A stretch of DNA of 64,000 nucleotides from a virus: the IMG/VR virus record IMGVR_UViG_3300035210_000189, positions 88,441 to 152,440 of that record; one strand, written 5' to 3'. Both the position numbers and the translations under genes were made by a program. Under the pieces are notes generated by a model, which saw only the letters and a list, made by a program, of their open reading frames with translations, made no database searches and was not told where the DNA came from. Positions 40,030 to 58,116 of this stretch are shown piece after piece; within the stretch, counting starts at the first letter, position 1; every line of letters begins with the position of its first letter.

Positions 40030-41025
40030 ATGTCAAAGATCTTAACTGGCGATAGGCCAACAGGTTCACTTCACCTTGGACATTTTGTAGGTTCGCTACG
40101 AAACCGAGTAGAACTGCAGTACCTGCACCAGCAAACGATCTTGATTGCTGACAATCAGGCATTGACTGACAACATGGGTAATCCTACCAAAGTGCGTGAT
40201 AACGTCATTGAAGTCGCCAAAGACTATCTGGCTTGTGGTATTGACCCGAATATGACTACGATTTGTGTTCAATCACATCTTCCAGCTATTGCCGAACTGA
40301 CTTTGTTGTATCTAAACCTTGTCACTGTCTCTCGCTTAGAACGGAATCCTACCATTCGTGATGAGATTAAAGCTAAAAATTTCGAACGCAGTATTCCAGC
40401 AGGGTTCTTAGCGTATCCCGTTGCACAAGCGGCAGATATCACAGCGTTCAAAGCTGACCTTGTTCCAGTCGGTGAAGACCAGCTTCCGTTAATTGAGCAA
40501 GCGAATGAGATTGTTCACAAGCTTAATACCCAGATAGGTTTTGAGATTGTACCTGCGATCAAAGCTCTTACATCGACAGTAGGACGACTGCCAAGCTTCG
40601 ATGGTAAGTCTAAAATGAGCAAATCGCTCGGTAATACTATTAATCTATACGCAAGCATGAAAGACATTCAAAAAGCCGTCAATTTGATGTTTACTGACAG
40701 CAATCACTTAAAGGTTGAAGATCCCGGCCAAGTAGAAGGTAACGTAGTGTTCACCTACCTTGATGCTTTCGATCCTGATGTTGATGAGGTGGCGAACCTT
40801 AAAGAGTTCTATCAACGTGGAGGGTTAGGTGATGGCACATTGAAAAAGCGTCTGGTTGGTGTTTTAGAAACGGTGATTGCTCCTATCAGAGAGAAACGTC
40901 TATTGTTGAATAACCAGCATGATTTTGTGCTTGATGTCTTGAAGCAGGGGACATTGAAAGCCTTAACAGAAACGAACCAGAACGTCAATGAAATTAAGGA
41001 CGCTTTTGGGTTTTTCAAGTTCTAA
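40030..41025 (+). CDS. trpS: tryptophanyl-tRNA synthetase
   Basis: TGDRPTGSLHLGH, YPVAQAADI, VPVGEDQ, KMSKS. Confidence 0.98.
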   Translation: MSKILTGDRPTGSLHLGHFVGSLRNRVELQYLHQQTILIADNQALTDNMGNPTKVRDNVIEVAKDYLACGIDPNMTTICVQSHLPAIAELTLLYLNLVTVSRLERNPTIRDEIKAKNFERSIPAGFLAYPVAQAADITAFKADLVPVGEDQLPLIEQANEIVHKLNTQIGFEIVPAIKALTSTVGRLPSFDGKSKMSKSLGNTINLYASMKDIQKAVNLMFTDSNHLKVEDPGQVEGNVVFTYLDAFDPDVDEVANLKEFYQRGGLGDGTLKKRLVGVLETVIAPIREKRLLLNNQHDFVLDVLKQGTLKALTETNQNVNEIKDAFGFFKF

Positions 41026-41054
41026 AATATTTTCAAAAATAGTGAAAAAAGTGC

Positions 41055-41083
41055 TTGCCACGATGAACGGTTTTCGGTATTAT
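41055..41083 (+). promoter_or_regulatory. sigma70 promoter for the minigene-array RNA
   Basis: TTGCCA-17 bp-TATTAT with A-rich upstream tract. Confidence 0.75.
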
Positions 41084-41138
41084 AGACACATCAAGACGAG
41101 AACAAGAACCCTAACGAAAACAAACAGTTATACTAATC

Positions 41139-41482
41139 AAGTGCCCGAGGTGAACTACCGATGGAGTAAGTAATCAAATTAGAGAATGAGACTATTTAAT
41201 ATGATGATACTAGCTTTAAACTAAACATTAACCACTTGACAATTAGATAAGTGCCAGAGGTGAACTAGGAATGCCGTAATACACTAAAATTAGATAATTA
41301 AATTGATGATATAATATTAGAGTATAACAAACACATAAACATTCACTTTAAAATCGTTTAAAATGAAGTGCTCGGAGGTGAGCTGCCCATGCCGTAGTCA
41401 ACAACTATTAGATAATTAAACTTATTATAGATGATGATATTAGAATGGAAATGAATCAAGCGGTGCGGTTTTTTTAAGTGGC
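41139..41482 (+). repeat. three ~110-nt degenerate repeats, each with an SD-ATG-codon-stop minigene
   Basis: AAGTG at 41139, 41249, 41366 and 41476; ATGGAGTAA 41161, ATGCCGTAA 41271, ATGCCGTAG 41389, each 8 nt after GAGGTG. Confidence 0.85.
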
Positions 41483-41519
41483 AATTTAACGCCCTCCACC
41501 AATTGATTAAAGCAACACG

Positions 41520-41549
41520 AAAAAGACCTAGGAATAGGTCTTTTTTTTT
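41520..41549 (+). terminator. intrinsic terminator
   Basis: AAAAAGACCTA-GGAA-TAGGTC followed by a T tract. Confidence 0.9.
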
Positions 41550-41656
41550 GCGTTCATATAGTAAAAAGTTCTTGCATTATATTTAAAAGTATGATCGACT
41601 CTTTACTTTTTGTATTTTTATAGTATGATGTTGAAGACCAACAGTAAGGAGGACGT

Positions 41657-41941
41657 ATGAATAAAAATACAGTTCCGATTGCTCTGGCGGCTTTATTGCC
41701 TGTTGCTTATGGAGTTAGAAGACTCATTAAAACTAAAGCAACTGAACAAACTGAAATGAATCAACTTCTCGGAGATCATTTCAAGGATGAATACAAAAAT
41801 TTGAAATTGACCTCCCACCAAAGAAAAGAGATTTATTCAGTTCTTAAGAATAAAGCTGCTGACGCCAATCATGACATTAAACACATACTTAATGATACAC
41901 AACTTAGTCTATACGAAAAAATTCGTAATAAACTTCATTAA
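41657..41941 (+). CDS. LTXXQ-motif protein
   Basis: AAGGAGG SD; LKLTSHQ...ILNDTQ. Confidence 0.65.
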   Translation: MNKNTVPIALAALLPVAYGVRRLIKTKATEQTEMNQLLGDHFKDEYKNLKLTSHQRKEIYSVLKNKAADANHDIKHILNDTQLSLYEKIRNKLH

Positions 41942-45117: not shown

Positions 45118-45265
45118 CCTTATTGTCAGGTTTCTCTATAATAGTTGTTTTGAAATCAACTATATATAAGGAGGACTTATGAGTGGAGATGCGTCTTAAA
45201 TCATAGCTACATTTATATTTGTTAACTGGCACTGAATGGTTTTCCATTCGGTGTTTTTCTTATTT
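45114..45265 (+). promoter_or_regulatory. frr leader: promoter, uORF MSGDAS (45179-45199), terminator-like hairpin
   Basis: TTGACC-17-TATAAT; AAGGAGG SD; 12-bp hairpin 45228-45255 running into TTTTTCTTATTT. Confidence 0.65.
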
Positions 45266-45287
45266 GTTTAATTTAAAGGAACTTATC

Positions 45288-45842
45288 ATGACTAATGTAA
45301 AAAAAGAAACACAAAAAGAATTATCAAAAGCCATTGAGTCGTTGAAAATTACATTGGCGAAAATTCGAACAGGTCGAGCACATCCCAGCTTACTGGATTC
45401 AGTCATTGTTGAACACCAGAATACAAAATCACCACTTAAACAAATGGCAACTATCGTTGTAGAAGACGCTCGCACACTCAAAGTAGTGGCATTTGACCCC
45501 AAATCAGTAGGAGCTATCACAAAGTCTATCTTGAACGCTGGACTAGGCTTAAATCCTTCAAATACTGGCACCAACATTTATGTTCCTCTACCTGCACTGA
45601 CAGAAGAAACACGCAAAATGTATATCAAGCAGTTACGTCAGAATATTGAAAGTGCTCGCATTGTTGTTCGTAATCTTCGTAGAGATGCTTTCACTGCCTA
45701 TAAGAAACAATTGAAGAATAAAGAAATCAACGAAAACGATGAAAAACGATTGAGTAATTCTATTCAGAAAGACGTTGATGAGACGATGGCTATTATTGAT
45801 GGACTATTAACTCAAAAAGAAAAAGAAATCATGGCTATTTAA
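45288..45842 (+). CDS. frr: ribosome recycling factor
   Basis: KIRTGRAHPS, LGLNP, PALTEETRK, VRNLRRDA; 184 aa. Confidence 0.97.
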   Translation: MTNVKKETQKELSKAIESLKITLAKIRTGRAHPSLLDSVIVEHQNTKSPLKQMATIVVEDARTLKVVAFDPKSVGAITKSILNAGLGLNPSNTGTNIYVPLPALTEETRKMYIKQLRQNIESARIVVRNLRRDAFTAYKKQLKNKEINENDEKRLSNSIQKDVDETMAIIDGLLTQKEKEIMAI

Positions 45843-46347: not shown

Positions 46348-47157
46348 ATGAATTTATTAAAGCAAATGTTATGTAATTCAACTGACAAACTTTCAGCCGA
46401 TTTTCATTCGGCTGTCGCAAAAAAGCTTGTTATTCTATTACAAAAAATCTGTAAAATTGACTTATCTAATATGGATGAGATACATCCTGATTATTTTAGA
46501 TATACACCAAGTCAATCAGCAGCTAATATTTTTTATGCTTTTGCTTATAAAGGAAAATCTGGTAAAGCTATTATAAGGCGAATTGATTCTCAACTTTCTG
46601 TTATTTTCTCATTTCGGCTGGCAGATGATTACCCTACGTTACCTGCGGGGGTTCGCTTTGTTGATATTACTGTCGATGACAACTTAAATTTACAATCTGC
46701 ATTATTTCAAAATAAATTTCACTTTGGTTGTGGAGTTAACACAAATCCAAATATTTTTCCAGCTACCATAGAATACGAGACTACTAGTAAAGGATCTTTA
46801 TTAATCAATAGGGAACTTGATAGTCAATGCAACCTAAAAACATCTATCACTTATACTATTTCAGGAGTAAATGATCGCTCATTAACACTCAATAGGGATG
46901 AAAATTCATCTAAATTTAACTTATTTTTTGAAAATGATGCTTCTTTTTACACTCCATTTTTAAAAATGATGGCGATTTGTTCTCAAAGACCACCTTTATT
47001 TTATTCTGTATTCAGTGAATATCCTTCTTATGTTGACTTAACATCAAATGGCACTGAATGCTTTCAATTATTGTTAGAAACCTATCAAAGTGAATATCAA
47101 AACCATGCTATTTCTCTCCATGATAAATTGTTATTGCTTGATATGGTCAATGTTTAA
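46348..47157 (+). CDS. family-A array protein 1
   Basis: KL..LL...C.IDLS; VD.NLN; FYSVF.EYP; ends LLLDMVNV. Confidence 0.8.
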   Translation: MNLLKQMLCNSTDKLSADFHSAVAKKLVILLQKICKIDLSNMDEIHPDYFRYTPSQSAANIFYAFAYKGKSGKAIIRRIDSQLSVIFSFRLADDYPTLPAGVRFVDITVDDNLNLQSALFQNKFHFGCGVNTNPNIFPATIEYETTSKGSLLINRELDSQCNLKTSITYTISGVNDRSLTLNRDENSSKFNLFFENDASFYTPFLKMMAICSQRPPLFYSVFSEYPSYVDLTSNGTECFQLLLETYQSEYQNHAISLHDKLLLLDMVNV

Positions 47158-47186
47158 AAACGTATGTTAAATATTTGGAGTAACTA

Positions 47187-47966
47187 ATGAGTTTTAAAGA
47201 TGATATAAAAAAATTTAGCTATTGTGGATCTAATAATTTTCCAATAAAATTTCACATTGATATGAAAGAGAAACTGGCTGAACTTTTAAAGCTGGTCTGT
47301 AACATCGATCTTTCTATGCTGTCGCCTGATGAAAATTATTTTCAATTTGATAGGGATTTCAAACAACATCAAAAAATTAAGTATCATTTCAATTATACTG
47401 GCACTGACGTTGGTGAGGCGGAAGCACTTGTTATATTGAGTGGAGAACGATTTTTTGTATCATTTCAATTTTATAAAAAGGAAAAACATCCAAGCCTTCC
47501 AGCAGGAGCCTATTGTGTCGATATTGATGTAGATGAACAGTTGAGTTATATATTGGCTGAGTTTGAAATCCGCTATGATTTTGGATGGAAATTAGATAAC
47601 CCTAAACATCGTGCTACAGTCTTCTTTTATAAAGTTCTTGATAAAAATCTTAAATTAAGCACAGTTATCAATTGCATCAATCGGAATAGTCGTAAAACAC
47701 ATACCTTGCTTAAAACAAAAGATCTTCCAGCCTTGTTTTTTGAAAATAATCATCATTTTTATGACACACTGAAAGATATGCTTGAATGTTGCGAGATGCA
47801 ACCAAATTTGTTCTATTCTGTATTTTCAGAATACCCAGACCATATAGAACTAGCTTCCAACAGTGAAGCTGTCAAAAAGTTTCTCACCTTATACCATGAC
47901 CAATTTATACAGGATTCTTCGCTTGTAGAGTCAAGGCTTCTATTGCTCGAAATGCAGGCTATTTAA
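47187..47966 (+). CDS. family-A array protein 2
   Basis: Same motifs; ends LLLEMQAI. Confidence 0.8.
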   Translation: MSFKDDIKKFSYCGSNNFPIKFHIDMKEKLAELLKLVCNIDLSMLSPDENYFQFDRDFKQHQKIKYHFNYTGTDVGEAEALVILSGERFFVSFQFYKKEKHPSLPAGAYCVDIDVDEQLSYILAEFEIRYDFGWKLDNPKHRATVFFYKVLDKNLKLSTVINCINRNSRKTHTLLKTKDLPALFFENNHHFYDTLKDMLECCEMQPNLFYSVFSEYPDHIELASNSEAVKKFLTLYHDQFIQDSSLVESRLLLLEMQAI

Positions 47967-48028
47967 TTTATTTTGATTGATATAATCGCTCTATTATGAT
48001 ATTATGTTGCAAATTATTGGAGTGTTTC

Positions 48029-48760
48029 ATGACTATTTTAGACGAGATAAAAACTTTAAAATATACAGATGCTGTGTCATCTTCATTTAACACTCTTATT
48101 CAATCAAAATTAATTACTTTGTTTCATAAATTGTGCCATATAGATGAGGAAACGCTAGTTTATGGGTTTTCAGTTCTTCTTTCTGGTATAGGTTCTATTC
48201 ACGCTTCTTTTAAATATGCAACAGTGGAAATCACCTGTAAAGAAGATCATATCAAAGTGGTTTTCTATTTTAAAAGCGATCAGTTTATTAAAGAAATCCC
48301 AGTAGGATCGCAAGAGTTGGTTGTTATTACTGATGCTGATATGAACTATAAATCAGCCACATTTAAAAGTGCTTTTTCCTTTGGAATACCTAATCAAAAA
48401 GGAACGCTCCAAATAGATAGATTGGTTGACATCAATTTTAATACGACAACATCATTGTCTTATGCCATCTCATGTTATGGCTTTGATTTGTATCGGTTTA
48501 ATTTAAAACATGAAAACTTGCCTAAAATTTATTTGAGCAATGATAATAACTTTTATACCCCCTTCTTAAAAATGATTGAGTATTGCTTTTATCAATCAGA
48601 CATTTTTTACAGTGTTTTTGATGAGTATCCTTCTCACCAAGATATTTTGACCTATGACTATGAGTTTAAAAAGTTTTTAAGAAACTACAATAAAGATTAT
48701 AAAAGTCGTAAGAAACTATTGAAGTCAAAGATTGCATTACTTGATATGCAGGCGATATAA
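48029..48760 (+). CDS. family-A array protein 3
   Basis: Ends LLDMQAI. Confidence 0.8.
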   Translation: MTILDEIKTLKYTDAVSSSFNTLIQSKLITLFHKLCHIDEETLVYGFSVLLSGIGSIHASFKYATVEITCKEDHIKVVFYFKSDQFIKEIPVGSQELVVITDADMNYKSATFKSAFSFGIPNQKGTLQIDRLVDINFNTTTSLSYAISCYGFDLYRFNLKHENLPKIYLSNDNNFYTPFLKMIEYCFYQSDIFYSVFDEYPSHQDILTYDYEFKKFLRNYNKDYKSRKKLLKSKIALLDMQAI

Positions 48761-48761
48761 C

Positions 48762-49508
48762 ATGACCACTATTTATGAACAGTTAACCAACAAGGATTAT
48801 TCTGTTGAGCCTACGATTATTGCTCGTTTGATTGTATTGCTAAAAATTGTCTCAGGTGTTGACTTGTCAGGCCAAGATGCTGAGTTCAAACGTAATACGA
48901 TCATAACAGGTGGTTTTGTGACCATTGAGTTTCATTTTCCTAATGGTGTAGCTTCCGTTACGTCTAAAAAAGGCTTGCTGACGGCTGACTTCAAATTTTT
49001 GAGAAAGATGAAGGAAAACTTTCCTTTCAATGCGTGGCATTGTCAAATAGATGTCGATCATGAAATGAATTTTGAAAAGGCACGTTTTGAATATTATATC
49101 AGCGTCTCAAAATATAACTTAAACCGTGATGAAAGTTCAGCAGCGTATTGTGCCATTAAAATAAACCATGTTCTGGATAAAGAGCTTAACCGCTTTAATA
49201 CTGTTGAGTACAACAATTTGCATTCAACAACATTCAGAACCTATGCTGATATGTCATCAATTGGGCTAAATTCATATTTTTTAACGCCTAATAATGATTT
49301 TGAGCAACTTTTAATCAAATTTCTTGATTTCTTTAAACAAGATCCCCGTATGTTTTACAGTATTTTTACGGAATATCCTTCTTTTGTTCATGTCATTGAA
49401 CAGATGGAGAAAGCAAAAGACTTTTTAAATCTATTTCATGAACAATATATCAATGATATAGATATTTTAAAATCAAGAATGCTACTTATCGACATGCAGG
49501 CGATTTGA
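48762..49508 (+). CDS. family-A array protein 4
   Basis: MTTIYE start; ends LIDMQAI. Confidence 0.8.
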   Translation: MTTIYEQLTNKDYSVEPTIIARLIVLLKIVSGVDLSGQDAEFKRNTIITGGFVTIEFHFPNGVASVTSKKGLLTADFKFLRKMKENFPFNAWHCQIDVDHEMNFEKARFEYYISVSKYNLNRDESSAAYCAIKINHVLDKELNRFNTVEYNNLHSTTFRTYADMSSIGLNSYFLTPNNDFEQLLIKFLDFFKQDPRMFYSIFTEYPSFVHVIEQMEKAKDFLNLFHEQYINDIDILKSRMLLIDMQAI

Positions 49509-49509
49509 T

Positions 49510-50289
49510 ATGAAAACAATCTATGATCGTATGTTAGAAAAAGAAGCTCGTATTTTTAATGAAGAGTTAAATTCTGTCATTATTCCAAAATTAGTTCATT
49601 TACTTAATCAGTTGTGTGATATTGATTTGAATGCAACAGGAACATGTTTTAAGCCTTATATGATCTATACTGGTTCTACCATTTATGATCACAATCTTAA
49701 AATTACTTACAGATGTCAATACTGTGAAGCAAGCGTGTCATTAAAAGATAATAAATTATCCGTATATTTTAGTTTTTTTAAGAAGAATTTAGATCATTAT
49801 AAAACACCTTTAAATGCAGATAGATGTGCTATTGATGTTGACCATCAGTTGAATTTTAAACAAGCTGTTTTTAATTATTATGCAAACTTTTCAAAGTTAA
49901 AAATTGATCGTCACTGTGATGGGCATGTATATAGTTCATTGAATATTGCTCGAACTTTTGATTCAAACTTCAATCAAACCAACACAGTAAGCTATTTGAA
50001 TGGGTTAACGGAAACATCAGATTATATTGATTTAAAGGACTTTGCTTTAAATCCAGTTTTTTTTCAAGCCAATAACCAATTTGATAAATTACTTGTAGAC
50101 GCTACAACCTTTTGCGAGTATAATCCAAAAGAATTCTACAATGTCTTTCCAGAATATCCAACCTATGTTGAGTTCATGACCAACATTGGAAAGGCTACTG
50201 CGTTTTTGAACCTTTTTTACGCACAATACACTGACGATGTTGAAATCTTAACATCACGACTTCTACTATTAGACATGCAGGCGATTTAA
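49510..50289 (+). CDS. family-A array protein 5
   Basis: Ends LLDMQAI. Confidence 0.8.
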   Translation: MKTIYDRMLEKEARIFNEELNSVIIPKLVHLLNQLCDIDLNATGTCFKPYMIYTGSTIYDHNLKITYRCQYCEASVSLKDNKLSVYFSFFKKNLDHYKTPLNADRCAIDVDHQLNFKQAVFNYYANFSKLKIDRHCDGHVYSSLNIARTFDSNFNQTNTVSYLNGLTETSDYIDLKDFALNPVFFQANNQFDKLLVDATTFCEYNPKEFYNVFPEYPTYVEFMTNIGKATAFLNLFYAQYTDDVEILTSRLLLLDMQAI

Positions 50290-50290
50290 T

Positions 50291-51046
50291 ATGAAAACAC
50301 TCTACGAACAATTCAGGAAATGTAAATTAGCCCTTAATTCTGATGTCGGTGATAATCCATTAATTTCAAAGAAACTTAAAGTCTTGTTTCATAAAGTTTA
50401 TGGCATTGATATTTCTGATGAATCTATACTGTTTAAAAAAGATATCGGATCTATTGGTCAAGAACTAAGTATTAGTTACAAATTTGAATATGGATCGGTT
50501 GATGTCTCCACTCAACAAGAGCAATTGGTTGTGAAGTTTTATCACAATGACAACTTTAAAGCTCCTTTTAAAGCTAATCGTTCTACTATTTCTGTGGATC
50601 ATGATTTAAATTTTGTTCGTGCTGAATATTGTATGTATTTTGCATTTTTAAACAGCGTTCTCCATAATAATGGTGGTTATGGTGGATACAACCAAATGAA
50701 AATCCAGCGGATTATTGATTTGAACGGTGCTTACAATTCTATCTCCTTCCGACATTCAGATGATGCAGATAGTGATTTATTTATTGATGTTGAACGGAGT
50801 AAGCTGGATGAACGCTTTTTTCAACCAAATACCAATTTAGAAGAAACATTCTATCAATTGATCGACTTTGTTACTGAACACCCACACGAATTTTATGCGA
50901 TATTTGATGGATATCCAAGTTTTTCTAAATGTGTTGACCATTCTGACGGTATTATTGATTTCGTTAATGTTTTTATTCATCAGTATTTTAGTGATAACGA
51001 AAGATTAAAACAAAACATGTTGTTACTTGATATGCAGGCCATATAA
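50291..51046 (+). CDS. family-A array protein 6
   Basis: Ends LLDMQAI. Confidence 0.8.
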   Translation: MKTLYEQFRKCKLALNSDVGDNPLISKKLKVLFHKVYGIDISDESILFKKDIGSIGQELSISYKFEYGSVDVSTQQEQLVVKFYHNDNFKAPFKANRSTISVDHDLNFVRAEYCMYFAFLNSVLHNNGGYGGYNQMKIQRIIDLNGAYNSISFRHSDDADSDLFIDVERSKLDERFFQPNTNLEETFYQLIDFVTEHPHEFYAIFDGYPSFSKCVDHSDGIIDFVNVFIHQYFSDNERLKQNMLLLDMQAI

Positions 51047-51047
51047 C

Positions 51048-51812
51048 ATGAAAACCATTTCTGATTATCTTTTTAAATGCAAACGTAATCTGACAACTAA
51101 CTTAGCTACTGATGTCAAACTTCGCATTGCGGTTAAGCTTGAAACATTACTTAACCAGTTTTGTGACATCGAACTTTCAGAAAATTCGCCTTCTTTTACA
51201 CCTAATGGTGGCATGGTAGGTCAAGAGATGGTTTCTTGCTATCAATTTAAATATGGTTCAGCCGATGTATCGACAAAAGATCAAAATCTGGAAGTTACTT
51301 TTTTCTTTAAAGAAAGTAATTTATTAAAAATTCCTTTGGGCACTAGTCGTTGTGTAGTTACTGTAGATCATGATTTAAACTTTAAAAAAGCAACATATTC
51401 ATATTATGTTTGCTTCTCAAAAAGAATTCTAGATTCAGACTACACTGATTTTGAACATTGCAATCTTCTTATTCAAAGGATTGTAGACGCAACTAACTAT
51501 TATAACAATATACTTTATCATAACACTCAATCAAAAGGCAAAGAATATAAGGATTTATTACAACATGGTCTTAATGAACGCTATGTGATTCCAGATTATG
51601 AATTTGAAATGATGTTTAAGAATTTCATTGTGTTTGCATGTACTAAACCATTTGATTTTTACGAAGCTTTTCCTGAGTATCCAAGTTATATGGATTTCAT
51701 TCATAAAATTGATCAGACTGTCGCATTTATGAACTTGTTTAACCAACAATACACAGCAGACCCAATACTGCTTAATCAAAAGATGTTACTTCTTGACATG
51801 CAGGTGATCTAA
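51048..51812 (+). CDS. family-A array protein 7
   Basis: Ends LLDMQVI. Confidence 0.8.
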   Translation: MKTISDYLFKCKRNLTTNLATDVKLRIAVKLETLLNQFCDIELSENSPSFTPNGGMVGQEMVSCYQFKYGSADVSTKDQNLEVTFFFKESNLLKIPLGTSRCVVTVDHDLNFKKATYSYYVCFSKRILDSDYTDFEHCNLLIQRIVDATNYYNNILYHNTQSKGKEYKDLLQHGLNERYVIPDYEFEMMFKNFIVFACTKPFDFYEAFPEYPSYMDFIHKIDQTVAFMNLFNQQYTADPILLNQKMLLLDMQVI

Positions 51813-52613
51813 TTGACAACTATTTATGATCACCTATTTTTATGCAATAAACTGAATGGCTTTAACAGTTCCCTCAATGATCAAATTATGTCTAAATTGG
51901 TTGTTTTGCTAGAACAGGTTTGTAATGTGGATTTGTCTGATGAACCAGCACTCTTTTTTCAAAATATAGCTAGTTTTGGAAAGGATGTTAGTATTGAATA
52001 TAAGTCCAAGTATGGGACGGCATCGTTATACACTAACAATAAAATGTTGGAAGTCATTTTTCTATTCACTCTAAAAGCATGTGATTCCCTATACATTCCA
52101 TTTAAATCAACTATTTGCGAAGTTAAAGTGGATAATGACTTAAATTTTAAGCAGGCAACTTTTAATTTTTTTGTTAACTTTTCTCACAACAACATCGAAC
52201 TTAAAGTCAATCCAAATAAATATGTTGGAACGGTATTGGTTACTAATCCTAAGTATTCAGCTATTCATATTAAACGTATCATTGATGAACATAGAATTAG
52301 TTCTAATATTATTACTTATAATAATTTTAAATGTAACAGTGGAGAATATATTAATTTAGGTAATATTGAGCTAAATAACCAATACTTTATACCAGACAAT
52401 GATTTTGAAAATTTATTTGTTAAATTCATTTTACTTTGTTCGAACAAACCAAAACAATTTTATACTGTTTTCATTGATTATCCTAGTTATCAAAATATTA
52501 TTGATCATAAAAAACATGCGGTTGAACTATTAAACCTATTCAGTGAACAGTATTTTAATAATTTTGAAACTTTGCAATCAAATATGCTACTAATTGATAT
52601 GGTGGAAATTTAA
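51813..52613 (+). CDS. family-A array protein 8
   Basis: TTG start abutting the previous stop; ends LIDMVEI. Confidence 0.8.
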   Translation: MTTIYDHLFLCNKLNGFNSSLNDQIMSKLVVLLEQVCNVDLSDEPALFFQNIASFGKDVSIEYKSKYGTASLYTNNKMLEVIFLFTLKACDSLYIPFKSTICEVKVDNDLNFKQATFNFFVNFSHNNIELKVNPNKYVGTVLVTNPKYSAIHIKRIIDEHRISSNIITYNNFKCNSGEYINLGNIELNNQYFIPDNDFENLFVKFILLCSNKPKQFYTVFIDYPSYQNIIDHKKHAVELLNLFSEQYFNNFETLQSNMLLIDMVEI

Positions 52614-52614
52614 T

Positions 52615-53382
52615 ATGACGAATATTTATGAGGCGATGGTACACTTTAAAAAGACAAACGAACCTAACTGGGGTATGACGCCTTTGGTTAGCTCTAAACT
52701 TGCTTCATTGCTTCGACAGGCAACTGGCATAGAACTGCATGGTGATGAACCTCATTTTACTAATAACATTAGCGTATGTGGTTTGGAAGTGGCTATGGAT
52801 TACTTCTTTAAATATGGATCAGCCACTTTGAGTTTGAAAGATAATGAGTTGGAAGTAGGTTTTTACTTTGTTCGTAAAGATGACAATGCTTATCAACTTC
52901 CATTTAATGCTAAACAATGTAGAGTTTATCTTGATCGTGATTTTAATTTTAAATTCGCTGTTTTTAATTATAAAGTTAATTTTTTAAAATCTCTTTTAAA
53001 TAATCACAACCAAAGTTCTGTGTATGCTTCCATTAAGATTCAAAAAATTATTGAGCAGGATTCAACAACAAGAACTACTGTTGAATATCAAAACCTTCTC
53101 TCTAATGTAAAAGAACATACTTCGCTTCATGATAAAGGTCTGGATACCCATTTCTTTAATGCTGATGTTAAATTTGAATCGTTTTTAGCTAAATTCATGG
53201 ATTCTTGTGCCACACGACCATATCAGTTCTATGAATTATTTCCAGAATATCCAAACTATATTGATTTCATGGAAAAAATGCACAAAGCTGTTGAATTTTT
53301 AAACCTATTTAACTCCCAATACATTAATCAGTTTGATGTGTTAGAATCTAAACTTCTTTTACTTGAAATGCAGGCTATCTGA
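52615..53382 (+). CDS. family-A array protein 9
   Basis: Ends LLEMQAI. Confidence 0.8.
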   Translation: MTNIYEAMVHFKKTNEPNWGMTPLVSSKLASLLRQATGIELHGDEPHFTNNISVCGLEVAMDYFFKYGSATLSLKDNELEVGFYFVRKDDNAYQLPFNAKQCRVYLDRDFNFKFAVFNYKVNFLKSLLNNHNQSSVYASIKIQKIIEQDSTTRTTVEYQNLLSNVKEHTSLHDKGLDTHFFNADVKFESFLAKFMDSCATRPYQFYELFPEYPNYIDFMEKMHKAVEFLNLFNSQYINQFDVLESKLLLLEMQAI

Positions 53383-53383
53383 A

Positions 53384-54160
53384 ATGTCTACAATACTGGA
53401 AAATATTGCAACATTAAAAAACAATCATTTTCCTGATGAGCTTAACGCCGTTATTCTCGCTAAGCTAACAATATTATTAAATATTACTTTTGGCTCTGCC
53501 TTATCCAGTGCTGGTAATGTTTCTTATCGTGAAATGGTAACTTATAATGACAATGACCAGATAGATATTTCATATAACTTTGAGTTTGGCGTTGCCTTCA
53601 TTTCTTTTTTTCGACCACTTAATCAACTCACTGTTTCCTTTTGTTGTTCTGTTAATATTGATAACTTATATCATAAAGATCTTAATTATTGTTTAACCGT
53701 TGATCCTAATCTTAATTTCGAGACGTTCTCTTTTGATAGATTCTTTGAGTTTTCGAGAGAACATAATGATAAACGTAAATATACATCTGTATGGTCAAAC
53801 TTGCTATTTGATATTAAAATGGATAATTTTTTAAATGTTAGCAAGAACTTTCTATATCGTAACGAAGAGATGTATACAATAGATGAAGATGATAAACAAA
53901 ATCTTTTTGATCATGGTTTGAATCCAGTGTTTTATCTTTCCAGTCGGCACTTTGATGAACTATTATTAAAGTTCTTAAATTATTGTATGAGAAATAAAAA
54001 AGATTTTTACTCTATATTTCCACACTATCCGACACAGATAAATTGTATGGAATCACTCAACAAAACAGTAGAGTTTTTAAATGTTTTTTGTGAAGAATAT
54101 ACAGACAATTTGTTAATTTTGGAGTATAATATTCTACTACTTGATATTCAGGCGATTTGA
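53384..54160 (+). CDS. family-A array protein 10
   Basis: Ends LLDIQAI. Confidence 0.8.
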   Translation: MSTILENIATLKNNHFPDELNAVILAKLTILLNITFGSALSSAGNVSYREMVTYNDNDQIDISYNFEFGVAFISFFRPLNQLTVSFCCSVNIDNLYHKDLNYCLTVDPNLNFETFSFDRFFEFSREHNDKRKYTSVWSNLLFDIKMDNFLNVSKNFLYRNEEMYTIDEDDKQNLFDHGLNPVFYLSSRHFDELLLKFLNYCMRNKKDFYSIFPHYPTQINCMESLNKTVEFLNVFCEEYTDNLLILEYNILLLDIQAI

Positions 54161-54161
54161 T

Positions 54162-54920
54162 ATGACGACACTTTATGAACAATTTAATGCAGTTCGAACA
54201 GCTCAGAAGAACTGGCTGTATGAACCGGACGTTCAACAAAAACTTATTGATATCTTTAAGATTATTTGTGATATTGATCTGTCTAATGAAACGACACCAT
54301 TTAAACCTGATGGCGGTTCTTTTGGTATGGAAATTGTTTATAACTATAAGTTTAAATATGGCAGAGTCTATGTTCAAACTGAGAAAAAAGAAATGCAGGT
54401 TATGTTTATTTTTGATGACCCCTATGATCTGACCATTCCATTTAGTCGTTCTTCAAGTTCACACCGTTGTACTGTCAAAGTCGATCACGACTTAAATTTT
54501 GTAGAAGGTCGATTTGGGTTTTATACATCTTTTTCAAATAGAACTCTAGATAGAGATGTTTCTGGATTTCTTATCCTCTGTTTTGAACGAGTCATTAATA
54601 GTAAACAATCATTTAATAGCATTGCTTATAGTCCTGATATGCTATCAGATAACTATCTAGATTTAATTCCACATCATCTTCATAAAAATTATTTAATTCC
54701 TAACATTGATTTTGAACAAGTATTCATGGAGTTCATGACTTTTTGTTCAGAGAATCCAGAAGACTTTTATAATGTGTTTGTTGAATATCCAAACTATGAA
54801 CAAATTATTAGTAATGTTGATAATTTTGTTCTTTTCTTAAACTTATTTAACCAACAATACATCGAAAACTCAGCACTTTTACAATCACGTATTTTGTTGT
54901 TAAACATGCAGACAATTTAA
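54162..54920 (+). CDS. family-A array protein 11
   Basis: Ends LLNMQTI. Confidence 0.8.
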   Translation: MTTLYEQFNAVRTAQKNWLYEPDVQQKLIDIFKIICDIDLSNETTPFKPDGGSFGMEIVYNYKFKYGRVYVQTEKKEMQVMFIFDDPYDLTIPFSRSSSSHRCTVKVDHDLNFVEGRFGFYTSFSNRTLDRDVSGFLILCFERVINSKQSFNSIAYSPDMLSDNYLDLIPHHLHKNYLIPNIDFEQVFMEFMTFCSENPEDFYNVFVEYPNYEQIISNVDNFVLFLNLFNQQYIENSALLQSRILLLNMQTI

Positions 54921-55001
54921 ATATGAGCTTAATATAATAAAGTAAATTGACATGTAGTTATTTTTAAATTAAACTTTCAAGACTTATATGAGGATAGTTA
55001 C

Positions 55002-55820
55002 ATGTTAGAACGTATATTTAAAGCAAAAGATGATTTCGATAAAGCCACTCTGTTAAAAGTCTCGGTTGATGATTATAAACCTAAGATCACTTTCTTTACA
55101 GGCTCTGGCATATCTCAGGAGAGCGGTTTAGAAACATTCAGGGCGGATGATGGTTTGTGGAGCAATCATCGTGTGGATGAAGTTGCAACGGCTCACGCCC
55201 TTCAAAAAGACTTTAAAAAGGTTAACAACTTTTTCAATGATCGACGTAAAGAAGTGATGGCCGCTCAACCTAATCGTTCTCATGAGATATTGAAAGAACT
55301 TGAAAAGTATTTTCATGTTGTCGTTGTCACTCAGAACGTTGATGACTTGCATGAGCGTGCTGGCAGTTCGTGTATCTATCATTTGCATGGCGAAATCATG
55401 CGTTCACGACCAGTTGGTAATGCCAAAGTATTCTATGACCAAAAGAAAGACATTAAACTGGGTGATAAGTGTATGTTGACCAAAGCACAAATTAGACCTC
55501 ATATTGTTTTGTTTGATGAAATGTTAGATGACAGTATTTTGTCTGACGCCAGAAAGCATATTAGAGAATCGGATGTCTTTGTTGTGGTTGGTAGTAGTCT
55601 TCAAGTTGAACCTGCCGCTTCATTGGTGGTAGAAGGCTTTGGTCTGAGGGATTTTATTTTGGTTGACCCAAGCACTGTCTTCATGAAATACAATGCTAAC
55701 TATGTGCATGTGAAAGAAAAAGCGACTGTGGGTTTGGAAATGATGTTACCGCAGTTGATTATTAAAGCCGACCAGATGAAAACTCAGTTTAAAGAAAATA
55801 AAGAAAGATTGAAAGTATAG
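55002..55820 (+). CDS. Sir2/CobB-family NAD-dependent protein deacylase
   Basis: TGSGISQESG..TFR; TQNVDDLHERAGS; HLHGE; RPHIVLF; GSSLQV. Confidence 0.93.
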   Translation: MLERIFKAKDDFDKATLLKVSVDDYKPKITFFTGSGISQESGLETFRADDGLWSNHRVDEVATAHALQKDFKKVNNFFNDRRKEVMAAQPNRSHEILKELEKYFHVVVVTQNVDDLHERAGSSCIYHLHGEIMRSRPVGNAKVFYDQKKDIKLGDKCMLTKAQIRPHIVLFDEMLDDSILSDARKHIRESDVFVVVGSSLQVEPAASLVVEGFGLRDFILVDPSTVFMKYNANYVHVKEKATVGLEMMLPQLIIKADQMKTQFKENKERLKV

Positions 55821-55873
55821 TGTATTGTGTGTTATACTTGCGATAATCTTATTTTTTTGAAGGCTATTTCAAC

Positions 55874-56677
55874 ATGACAACGATTTATGACAAACTTTTA
55901 GTATTAACAAATAAAATTGTCGATATGGATGATCTAATTTTCAAGCTTGATAATGAGTTAGATTTAGAGATAACTTCAAATTTGATTACTTTATTAAATC
56001 TCTCCTGTGGCATTGACTTGTCACAGGTAGAATCTGCATTTAGCGACCACAGATTATCATTTGATGAGTTTAATGATTTAGAGATTTCTTATAAGTTTCC
56101 GTATGGCAATTCTTTTATTAGTGTAAACACAACATCTAAATCATTGGACGTGTCATTTTCTTTTTCAAATGAAGTTCCTATAAAATTATACAAAAATAAT
56201 GTGTGTTATCTTAATGTTGATCATAACATGCAGTTTGAAAAATGTGCATTTAAAAGAGTTATTCAATATTCTAAATCTACTGTCGGCCAACCATTTTCTC
56301 TGCCAGTTTGGGGTGTTTTAATCATCTATACTTCTATTGACAAAGATTTAAACAAAATGCATAAGTTACATTATCAAAACAACAAATTGTATTCAGTGGA
56401 CGAAAACAATTTGATCAATTTATTTGATCAAAATATTAATCATTTTTTTAAATCACCACCTAATGAGTTCGATGAATTGTTATTTAGTTTTTTTAACTTT
56501 AACAGTCTCCATTCTGTCGAATTCTATGAGGTATTTCCTGATTATCCAGATTACAACAATCTAATGAAATCAGTTGATTACCTTATTCAATTTTTAAATT
56601 TGTTTTTTACACAATATACTACTGATAAACATCTATTACATCGTAAAATAGAATTGCTTGAAATGAGATTAATTTAA
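55874..56677 (+). CDS. family-A array protein 12
   Basis: Ends LLEMRLI. Confidence 0.8.
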   Translation: MTTIYDKLLVLTNKIVDMDDLIFKLDNELDLEITSNLITLLNLSCGIDLSQVESAFSDHRLSFDEFNDLEISYKFPYGNSFISVNTTSKSLDVSFSFSNEVPIKLYKNNVCYLNVDHNMQFEKCAFKRVIQYSKSTVGQPFSLPVWGVLIIYTSIDKDLNKMHKLHYQNNKLYSVDENNLINLFDQNINHFFKSPPNEFDELLFSFFNFNSLHSVEFYEVFPDYPDYNNLMKSVDYLIQFLNLFFTQYTTDKHLLHRKIELLEMRLI

Positions 56678-56678
56678 A

Positions 56679-57389
56679 ATGGATACTATTTACAATGAGA
56701 TCTTGAAGAGGAAAACGACCAGAAGCTTAGGGGACGACTTGACTTCGGCTATTAGTTTGAAATTAGTTAAACTTTTAAAAGCTTCCTGTAATATTGATTT
56801 ATCTGGTATAGAAGTGCCTTTTCAACAAACTGCTATTATTGATTTATCAGAGCTTAGTTGGCCGTTATTTGGTATTGCTCCTGATGGCACATTTTACATA
56901 ACTTTTCATTTTATTCATGGAGTGGTATCGCTACACCTTTATCCAGATAAACAAAGTTTAACATTGTCATTTGGCTTTAAGTATGATCATTTAGATTTTA
57001 TCCTTCCTAGTAATTCAAAATCTTGTAATGTAACGATAGATAACAATATGAATTTTATTGATTGCAATTTTGAAGTTGGTTTTTTATTTTCAACTGTGAC
57101 TTTAAATAATATTGAATCCAAAAGAATATTTGACATGGATTTTATCAATCCAGAAGATGTTCATAAAATAGAGGATGAAACAGATAGTCTTAATGAAATT
57201 ATCTATTATAATTATTTACATACATTAACGTCATATGAATTAGATCCATTATTGATAAATCATGATTTGTTAGTTCAATCAATTTTCACTAAATTAATGG
57301 GGTTACATTCAAAATATCCACATATTTGTTATTCAGGATTTGAAAATCACCTAACATTAAGGAACTATTTAAATGATAACAATTCATGA
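56679..57389 (+). CDS. family-A array protein 13, lacking the C-terminal module
   Basis: Family N-terminus present; ends NYLNDNNS and overlaps the next gene. Confidence 0.7.
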   Translation: MDTIYNEILKRKTTRSLGDDLTSAISLKLVKLLKASCNIDLSGIEVPFQQTAIIDLSELSWPLFGIAPDGTFYITFHFIHGVVSLHLYPDKQSLTLSFGFKYDHLDFILPSNSKSCNVTIDNNMNFIDCNFEVGFLFSTVTLNNIESKRIFDMDFINPEDVHKIEDETDSLNEIIYYNYLHTLTSYELDPLLINHDLLVQSIFTKLMGLHSKYPHICYSGFENHLTLRNYLNDNNS

Positions 57390-58116
57390 TTCCATGATGA
57401 AATTACAATACTTGGATAACCTTGATATTGGTTCATTATTTTATCCAAAATTTATTTTTTTACTCAAACAAGTATTTGACATTGATTTGACGAACGAACT
57501 CAATCCATTTCAGGAAGTTTCTCAAATGATTGGTAGTAATATTGATATTTGCTATCTATTTAAATATGGAAGCATTCTTGTATCTGCTCACAAAGAAAAC
57601 ACTGCTATTGGTGTATATATCACTATTACTGATAGTGTTATTAGTAATAAAATGCCTTACAAATCCACATCTTGCAGTTTAAAACTTGATCATGATATGA
57701 ATTTTATATGGGCATCTTTTGATATTAGTCTGGAATTTTCACGTTCGTACAATGATGAGTATAGCTTATTACAAATCAGAAATGTATTAAGTCCATCATC
57801 TCGTATTGTTAAAACATTCACTTATTCCAATCAAACGCAGTATTCAGTTTCAAAAGATTTGAAATCTTTTGGACTTAGTTCCAACTTTTTTACAGCCAAT
57901 AAAGAATTTGATGATTGCTTAATCGACTTCTTAACGTGCTGTTCAGTGACACCAAAACAATTTTATGACGAATTCACCGAATACCCCAACTATGATACGT
58001 TGATATCAACGGTTGAAGGCACTGTACAATTATTGTCTATATTTAACAAGCAATATATAGATGATAAAGATTTATTGAAATCACGATTGTTATTGACTGA
58101 AATGTGTTTGATTTAA
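57373..58116 (+). CDS. family-A array protein 14
   Basis: Ends LLTEMCLI. Confidence 0.8.
   Translation: MITIHDSMMKLQYLDNLDIGSLFYPKFIFLLKQVFDIDLTNELNPFQEVSQMIGSNIDICYLFKYGSILVSAHKENTAIGVYITITDSVISNKMPYKSTSCSLKLDHDMNFIWASFDISLEFSRSYNDEYSLLQIRNVLSPSSRIVKTFTYSNQTQYSVSKDLKSFGLSSNFFTANKEFDDCLIDFLTCCSVTPKQFYDEFTEYPNYDTLISTVEGTVQLLSIFNKQYIDDKDLLKSRLLLTEMCLI

Follow-up and report, generated by a model that had tools for sequence, protein, structure and literature searches.

The 64,000-nucleotide stretch analysed here (the window) covers positions 88,441 to 152,440 of the IMG/VR virus record IMGVR_UViG_3300035210_000189 and includes, at 41055-41549, a predicted transcription unit which carries three copies of a minute module, each made of a Shine-Dalgarno (SD) sequence, an eight-nucleotide spacer, ATG, one NNG codon and a stop codon. 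These copies belong to a family of 39 distinct homologous modules, distributed over six IMG/VR records (G000-G005) and several peat-metagenome contigs. Judged from their sequences, they are uncatalogued RNA modules found in phage-like elements of giant size (160-440 kb) that form a small clade. Their layout is very probably under selection and the RNA most likely functions through the ribosomes it engages and not through a protein product. Our preferred reading, to which we assign a probability of about 0.4, is that the array acts in trans as a sink for components of the translation machinery.

The window unit begins with a predicted sigma-70 promoter on the plus strand (TTGCCA-17-TATTAT, 41055-41083, with 10 of 12 consensus positions matched), followed by a 5′ leader of ~50 nucleotides (nt) (ACACATCAAGACGAG..., 41090-41138, +), whose start is placed ~7 nt past the -10 element. 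Three modules follow on the same strand, each with an AU-rich tail and conforming to AAGTGC(C/T)-N-GAGGTGA-N7-ATG-NNG-stop. Module 1 (ME*, the asterisk denoting the stop; 41139-41248; nhmmer E = 3.5e-10) includes an AAGTGCC box, the SD GAGGTGA at 41147-41153, ATG at 41161-41163, GAG, and TAA at 41167-41169. Module 2 (MP*; 41249-41366; E = 2e-12) also has an AAGTGCC box, with the SD at 41257-41263, ATG at 41271-41273, CCG, and TAA at 41277-41279. In module 3 (MP*; 41367-41453; E = 2.1e-09) the box reads AAGTGCT, the SD GGAGGTGA occupies 41374-41381, ATG 41389-41391, and CCG is followed by TAG at 41395-41397. GAGGTG thus lies at 41147, 41257 and 41375 with the ATG always 8 nt on, and the three repeats have diverged. 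The pattern GAGGTG-N8-ATG-NNG-TAR has three matches in the 64-kb window against 0.00 expected (100 dinucleotide shuffles). The unit closes with a 3′ hairpin domain (AATCAAGCGGTG ... CACCAATTGATT, 41454-41508, +; inverted repeat I7 and minimum-free-energy fold) and a predicted intrinsic terminator with a 12-bp stem, a 4-nt loop and a T-run (41519-41546, +).

This organisation, three SD-N8-ATG-NNG-stop modules between a predicted promoter and terminator, is that proposed in a preliminary description made from the letters of the window alone, and the downstream blocks noted there, ATTAGA(G/T)AAT and TGATGATA, do recur 3′ of every module. Some details need correction. Of the two spacings given, 110 nt is right but the other measures 118 nt instead of 117. 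No open reading frame (ORF) of at least 40 amino acids lies wholly within the unit, which had been described as free of long ORFs, but a 61-amino-acid ATG frame (40988-41173) enters it from the end of the upstream trpS gene and overlaps the leader and the first module. A "fourth AAGTG" is indeed present at 41477, but as part of the 3′ hairpin domain and without the SD, ATG and stop layout. The next ORF (41657-41941) is separated from the array by the terminator and a new promoter, and the array is probably a separate transcript. The public runs examined for the stretch consist of contigs, of which the sole sizeable RNA-labelled one is probably DNA; in a freshwater RNA run, coverage is limited to the gene next to the array. 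With the Rfam covariance models the window gave no match at gathering score and the array none even at E <= 10; the sub-threshold matches in 40900-41700 (Phe_leader, E = 0.84; SraG, E = 3.4) are on the minus strand, over the terminator.

The family was assembled from exact-pattern scans of IMG/VR and JGI metagenomes, followed by regular-expression and nhmmer searches of all fetched loci (L numbers below), which included two whole records. Most single matches of a looser IMG/VR pattern were unrelated to the family and were discarded. A blastn search with the 531-nt region returned no match among GenBank phages or PLSDB plasmids, and the strict head pattern produced only chance matches in 185,579 species genomes, all in long ORFs of GC-rich metagenome-assembled genomes. 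As far as exact-pattern searching can tell, the family seems restricted to one giant phage-like clade. Anchoring the modules on the ATG shows little or no variation in the AAGTGCC box, in GAGGTGA, at C -6, in the ATG itself or at G +6; drift affects the AU-rich tail, the flanks, the third codon and letters -3 to -1 of the spacer. The period is 100-118 nt across the family and all copies are oriented along local transcription. SD, 8-nt spacer, ATG and in-frame stop occur together in 38 of the 39 modules, the exception (L092:10266) being a single G>T change in the SD, and this bears out the earlier suggestion that the minigene layout is not accidental. GAGGTG-N8-ATG is nearly private to the modules, which account for 20 of its 23 matches in five records.

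Since the conserved columns are in part set by the search patterns themselves, the searches were repeated without requiring an ATG. Wherever an AT-rich head GTGC..GAGGTG occurs in the two whole genomes or in any of the loci, an ATG stands behind it at an unchanged distance. The ATG-free scan of IMG/VR returned known loci, its new matches (L110-L121) all proving unrelated, and an nhmmer profile run at maximum sensitivity recovered 40 significant copies, all with an intact ATG and a short ORF. Copies which retain the flanks and have lost the ATG or the stop, identified in the preliminary description as the observation that would speak against minigenes, were found neither with the ATG-free regular expression, nor in the IMG/VR scan, nor by nhmmer on the two whole genomes and the fetched loci.

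The reading frame is maintained throughout the family. Every one of the 39 modules closes its frame within 1-5 codons, and this is achieved with 20 different ORF strings, which include M*, ME*, MP*, MQ*, MK*, MQN*, MQH*, MPY* and MPH* as well as MQF*, MQS*, MQI*, MQL*, MKR* and MQHKL*; three of the 39 are pure AUG-UAA start-stops. Frame statistics were scored on 40 pattern matches, the 39 family modules and one chance match. A stop within three codons is present 38 times in frame 0, compared with 7 in frame +1 and 2 in frame +2, and the earliest stop triplet of any frame falls in frame 0 in 35 of the 40 matches. After shuffling of the 30 nt past the ATG, short ORFs remain in 14.9 ± 3.0 of 40 (maximum 25 in 2000 shuffles). 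The stop is UAA in 36 of the 40. As the copies are related by descent, the module counts are not independent trials. The ORF lengths differ by 3-nt steps, stops are exchanged between modules (ATG CAG AAC TAA versus TGA; CAT TAA versus CAT TGA), and the additional variants CAG CAA TAA and CAG CGA TAA occur at another locus, on contigs of two coded organisms. This variety of ORF strings nevertheless shows many separate events, each of which kept the frame closed. We consider it probable that the modules are translated.

The SD, GAGGUGA in the RNA, provides a 7-8-nt match to the 3′ tail of 16S rRNA. Its distance from the AUG is fixed at GAGG + 10 nt; in the real genes of these phages it is GAGG + 7-8 nt, that is, 2-3 nt shorter. 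This atypical spacing, together with the AAGTGCC box and positions +4 to +6, which are conserved like the SD and which translation alone leaves unexplained, would suit a quite different interpretation: AAGUGCC-N-GAGGUGA-N7-AUGCAG might be a non-translated motif, either a binding site for a protein or an antisense RNA or a decoy, for instance one that imitates a host start region and so titrates a repressor, nuclease or anti-SD small RNA, with the ATG and the stop being incidental. Maintenance of an in-frame stop through 3-nt steps and stop swaps, in 20 ORF variants, is however not what a protein-binding or structural motif would be expected to predict. Nor is there a consensus structure (RNAalifold over 37 modules yields 0 consensus pairs), and no copy lacks the ATG or the stop. 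We therefore regard such a motif as decidedly unlikely. No pairing partner of the AAGTGCC box could be detected. A CACUU/AAGUG hairpin 5′ of the SD was also considered and rejected, since shuffled upstream sequence does equally well (mean best score 4.28 for the hairpin and 4.21 after shuffling; perfect matches 11 and 10.8). The hexamer AGTGCC of the module box also occurs in adjacent tRNA-Leu(UAA) genes, where the variable arm meets the T-arm (AGTGCCGGTTCGAGTCC); the likeness (e.g. L077:2933) fades after 8 nt and may be due to chance.

The second codon of the mini-ORF is constrained as well. Its last letter is G throughout (36 of 36 modules: CAG 26, CCG 6, AAG 3, GAG 1), and G-ending codons represent 11-14% of all codons and 7-10% of second codons in the phages' own genes, where CCG accounts for 6-8% of Pro codons. 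A third codon, variable in sequence, is present in most family ORFs. The notion that third codons are all of the queuosine-read NAY type was dropped once TTT, TCT, ATT, CTA and CGT turned up. The preliminary description drew attention to CCG, and with it to Pro before the stop, and suggested that the array might bias translation against a GC-rich host. The first of these does not extend to the family, in which CAG leads (26 versus 6 for CCG) and most ORFs include the additional codon. The second is weakened because CAG dominates, because the host is probably not GC-rich, and because in typical Gammaproteobacteria AAG and GAG share tRNAs with AAA and GAA.

Modules occur in several genomic contexts. 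Stand-alone promoter-to-terminator arrays of 2-5 modules are found in the window and in L003, L007, L010, L047 and L061. They have the same leader motif and four of them also the same 3′ hairpin, which ends the arrays in L010, L047 and L061 as it does in the window; the terminator is kept in L003, L010, L047 and L061. Other modules are leaders of tRNA operons, in the order promoter-modules-structured RNA-tRNA (L008, L089), or trailers, where tRNA-Leu(UAA) or tRNA-Met is followed by two modules and then a terminator (L019, L077, L081, L092). Single modules lie between tRNA-Leu(UAA) and tRNA-Met in L080 and L094, and one further context is a single copy in a 3′ untranslated region (UTR). Both arrays and tRNA operons are driven by a promoter-plus-leader cassette, TTG(A/C)C-N17-TATAAT-like followed by CACATCAAGAC, of which the promoter of the window array is part (window 41055-41100, L092:9218, L094:5685, L007 ~7100). 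The same promoter layout precedes the arrays in L003 and L010 and the tRNA operons in L092 and L094, and the leader motif reappears downstream of the -10 element in L007, L092 and L094. The shared cassette suggests a stable-RNA promoter class of these phages.

Two further features were noted in the tRNA operons and around the arrays. A conserved GC-rich structured RNA of ~85 nt (GGGGTATCCGCTAAAGGATAC...CTCC) immediately precedes tRNA genes (L089:1731-1815, +; L008 ~2200-2290, -; G001 ~163196, -) and has no Rfam match at gathering score. An extra mini-ORF, MALA* (AAGGAG-N7-ATG GCT CTC GCA TAA), is situated just upstream of the array promoter at L089:1432-1466; in its L008 counterpart (~2625-2650, -) ATA replaces ATG.

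Copy number has evidently been mobile: similar arrays contain 2, 3 or 5 modules, as expected if copy number shifts by unequal recombination, and a cassette composed of tRNA-Leu, module A, module B and terminator has been duplicated several times. Such behaviour could be that of a functionless repeat spread by duplication, or of an element acting at the DNA level such as a set of protein-binding sites or iterons, but this is the least probable of the explanations considered here. All copies lie on the strand of local transcription, the purifying selection is strand- and frame-specific with no decayed copies, and periods of 100-118 nt with drifting flanks are unlike iterons.

The contexts also bear on where the RNA might act. 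A ribosome sitting on the mini-ORF could serve as a docking pad which shields or insulates the linked RNA in cis (tRNA precursors, stable RNAs or the 3′ hairpin RNA) from RNase E-type cleavage, 5′-end-dependent decay or Rho, leaving the rest of the cell unaffected. Such protection has been demonstrated for the mini-ORFs of the LEE1, LEE4 and axe-txe leaders. The modules do serve as leaders of tRNA operons (L008, L089), their AU-rich flanks look RNase E-prone, and conservation of frame and stop fits protection equally well. Natural two-codon minigenes already in print protect mRNA in cis (PMC8708949). Many copies, however, are trailers before a terminator or single 3′-UTR copies with nothing downstream to protect; trailer modules come after the last tRNA of their operon and therefore cannot shield anything downstream. 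Stand-alone arrays carry only the modules and a short hairpin, a strong terminator separates the window array from the next gene, and a constant NNG codon would be irrelevant unless slow decoding matters. Protection in cis is the foremost alternative to a sink and has good precedent, but is rather unlikely in our view.

A regulatory role, the second of the ideas put forward in the preliminary description, appears very unlikely. In this case the dwell time of a ribosome on the mini-ORF would alter the RNA fold or read-through of the terminator and thus tune downstream genes or RNA stability, the input being the efficiency of termination and recycling or the supply of tRNA for the G-ending codon. 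In its favour, two pairings are open to the 3′ domain, one internal and one with the head of module 1 (inverted repeats I7 and I2), arrays are found ~0.6 kb (G002) and 3.7 kb (G000) upstream of frr, the ribosome recycling factor (RRF) gene, and sensing leaders typically have rare second codons. The I2 pairing is nevertheless only 76% complementary and without covariation, the terminator is strong and has a separate promoter behind it, the downstream genes vary among relatives, and the trailer and 3′-UTR copies are without a downstream target.

It is the combination of stand-alone arrays, trailer positions, the second-codon constraint and co-expression with tRNAs that leads us to favour a sink acting in trans. 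Each module would be a full translation start site, with SD, fixed spacer and AUG, where ribosomes start, produce nothing longer than a di- to pentapeptide and then terminate; the peptide itself would not be useful. The strong SD would probably permit re-start on the same site. Engagement would then be the payload, the RNA being a sink for ribosomes, for initiator tRNA or for the tRNA of the G-ending second codon, and tRNA could be tied up by drop-off of dipeptidyl- or tripeptidyl-tRNA, as in lambda bar and CreT. The array would be expressed from the strong promoter class of the phage's own tRNAs, within a translation take-over kit. A more elaborate version is quite doubtful: that the minigene RNA, multivalent and co-expressed with tRNAs for A-ending codons and in some lineages with RRF, drives host ribosomes through futile rounds of starting and stopping, traps tRNAs for G-ending codons (or ribosomes) in the form of short peptidyl-tRNAs and so shifts translation towards the AT-rich phage genes.

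Several points weigh against a trans-acting sink. The transcript is a predicted one, and an effect in trans requires a very high abundance of the RNA. As the SD-AUG distance exceeds that of real genes, the module sites are not idealised for initiation; the stretch from SD to AUG is predicted to be no more open than the average of the RNA, which is uninformative. The AAGTGCC box, conserved equally with the SD, has no role in a ribosome sink. Third codons are read by single-isoacceptor tRNAs (Asn, His, Tyr, Phe) which the phage also needs. To our knowledge, typical Gammaproteobacteria have no G-specific tRNA for AAG and GAG, whose tRNA is shared with AAA and GAA, so that selective tRNA trapping cannot be general. 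Finally, the RRF gene is absent from the near-complete G001 and G003, the two near-complete relatives with 10 and 3 modules.

The source record measures 152 kb, is classed by IMG/VR as a provirus with an estimated completeness of 55%, and has a GC content of ~34%. Most window ORFs have no match in Pfam or PHROG, with PHROGs giving almost nothing, and a search of five records gave no Terminase_6N; the label "phage" therefore rests on the IMG/VR classification. The element encodes tryptophanyl-tRNA synthetase (TrpRS) and RRF, as had been proposed: Pfam identifies trpS, the upstream neighbour of the unit (40030-41025, +; PF00579 tRNA-synt_1b, E = 1.2e-51), and frr, 3.7 kb downstream (45219-45842, +; PF01765, E = 1.1e-51). 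Four related IMG/VR records of 160-437 kb were reached through TrpRS homologues. The closest named relatives of the TrpRS are chromosomal enzymes of Acinetobacter (67-69% identity), so that the enzyme looks Acinetobacter-derived, and for this reason the host is probably Acinetobacter-like and a GC-rich host, as first suggested, is unlikely. Public runs that contain the stretch come from peat and wastewater, plus two coded organisms at ~97-98% identity.

The neighbourhood to which the preliminary description attached importance, directly after trpS and close to frr, is local and not a defining property. In relatives with a 94-95% identical TrpRS, unrelated DNA fills the slot after trpS (L004, L005, L006: 4994-5700) and the arrays are located elsewhere (e.g. 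L006:8608-8760). The RRF gene is present in G000, G002 and G005 and, as mentioned above, missing from two other relatives. No gene for Pth or for an RF-1 family protein was found in the five records searched for them (G000-G003, G005). The near-complete G001 carries 35 tRNA genes, including 11 for Leu(UAA), several for Arg(UCU) and Met(CAU), and two tRNA(CUA) amber suppressors. The latter prompted us to consider stop-codon recoding, which was rejected as the standard code gives 82-87% ORF coverage (82% in G001).

Other observations were made along the way. Just downstream of a module + tRNA-Arg unit, G001 includes, at ~183.3 kb, a 4.5S/signal recognition particle (SRP) RNA gene (L008:1923-2018, - strand; Rfam Bacteria_small_SRP, 58.7 bits, E = 1.1e-10), and the 437-kb G003 encodes a homologue of ribosomal protein S21 (C1:61515-61673; Pfam PF01165, E = 6.2e-13). 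Some family loci (L077, L082, L090) are carried by metagenome contigs of 1.54 and 1.86 Mb; these exceed any known phage by far and may represent host plus prophage or chimeric assemblies. In the window, 46348-58116 is occupied by fourteen head-to-tail paralogous ORFs of ~250-270 amino acids without Pfam or PHROG match. Since modules are found near phage tRNAs, SRP RNA, TrpRS, RRF and the S21 homologue, they can be viewed as part of a huge-phage translation take-over kit.

We know of no established natural role for the lambda bar minigenes, and since their discovery minigenes have been mostly a laboratory phenomenon. Lambda bar and the engineered 2-8-codon minigenes of E. coli resemble the modules in that a phage transcript carries an SD and an AUG, with the stop following after one or two sense codons (PMC2490762). 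The toxicity of minigenes is greatest when a length of 2-3 codons is combined with a strong SD and UAA, features known to maximise drop-off of peptidyl-tRNA and starvation for tRNA under Pth limitation; a strong SD allows re-initiation without release (PMC8708949; PMC2490762). The modules differ in that they have no sequence homology to barI/barII (AUG AUA UAA), no family ORF using AUA, and in being multi-copy, in dedicated arrays or tRNA operons, with ~40 copies under purifying selection.

With CreT it became clear that one translated mini-ORF RNA is able to serve as a natural toxin, and the idea of an RNA acting by being translated is already known from it. CreT RNAs are active only when efficiently translated, sequester a rare tRNA and arrest growth (PMC8501985). 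They are likewise small RNAs and combine efficient start signals with a mini-ORF, whose length is 4-6 codons as against 1-5 in the modules (PMC8501985). CreT, however, has two consecutive identical rare codons (AGA AGA, AUA AUA), whereas the modules have one G-ending codon and none of the 20 ORF strings includes a repeated codon. CreT is moreover a single unit beside the creA pseudo-CRISPR and type I cas genes, while the modules are in tandem and in a phage setting. There is no repeat-spacer-like unit within 40900-41700, where the neighbours are trpS and small unknown ORFs; no search for cas genes was made. ToxI-type repeat RNAs and CRISPR arrays consist of units of ~36 nt or of repeats and spacers, in contrast to the modules with 100-118 nt and partly conserved "spacers", and no toxin-like gene was found beside the array by Pfam.

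Leader mini-ORFs such as those of EHEC LEE1 and LEE4 and mg2 of axe-txe also have 2-6 codons and their own SD, and their occupancy matters, not the peptide, but they are single and lie close enough to a downstream protein gene for coupling or shielding (PMC3262186, PMC8708949). The modules differ from these cis-acting leaders since their arrays end in a terminator. Start-stop elements (AUG + stop) have counterparts in the three AUG-UAA modules, which have the same head as the others; the window modules (ME*, MP*, MP*) and most of the family nevertheless include one or two sense codons, and the start-stops known from bacteria occur singly, in 5′ UTRs (bioRxiv 10.1101/520783).

A literature search revealed no description of the tandem, phage-borne, tRNA-operon-linked form of minigene, and it is in this form, and in the extent of the evidence that its layout is selected, that we propose the novelty lies. 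Selection on start site, spacing and in-frame stop while the peptide drifts constitutes sequence evidence for ribosome engagement without a protein product as a selected viral function. If the modules do trap tRNAs or ribosomes, what has been known for decades as the lambda bar/pth phenomenon would turn out to be a weapon evolved by viruses, not a curiosity of the laboratory; if their effect is only protection in cis, the family would still be a recognisable, unannotated RNA element which annotators misread as empty spacer. The unit would work like a bar-type minigene or a CreT toxin while being a member of neither family.

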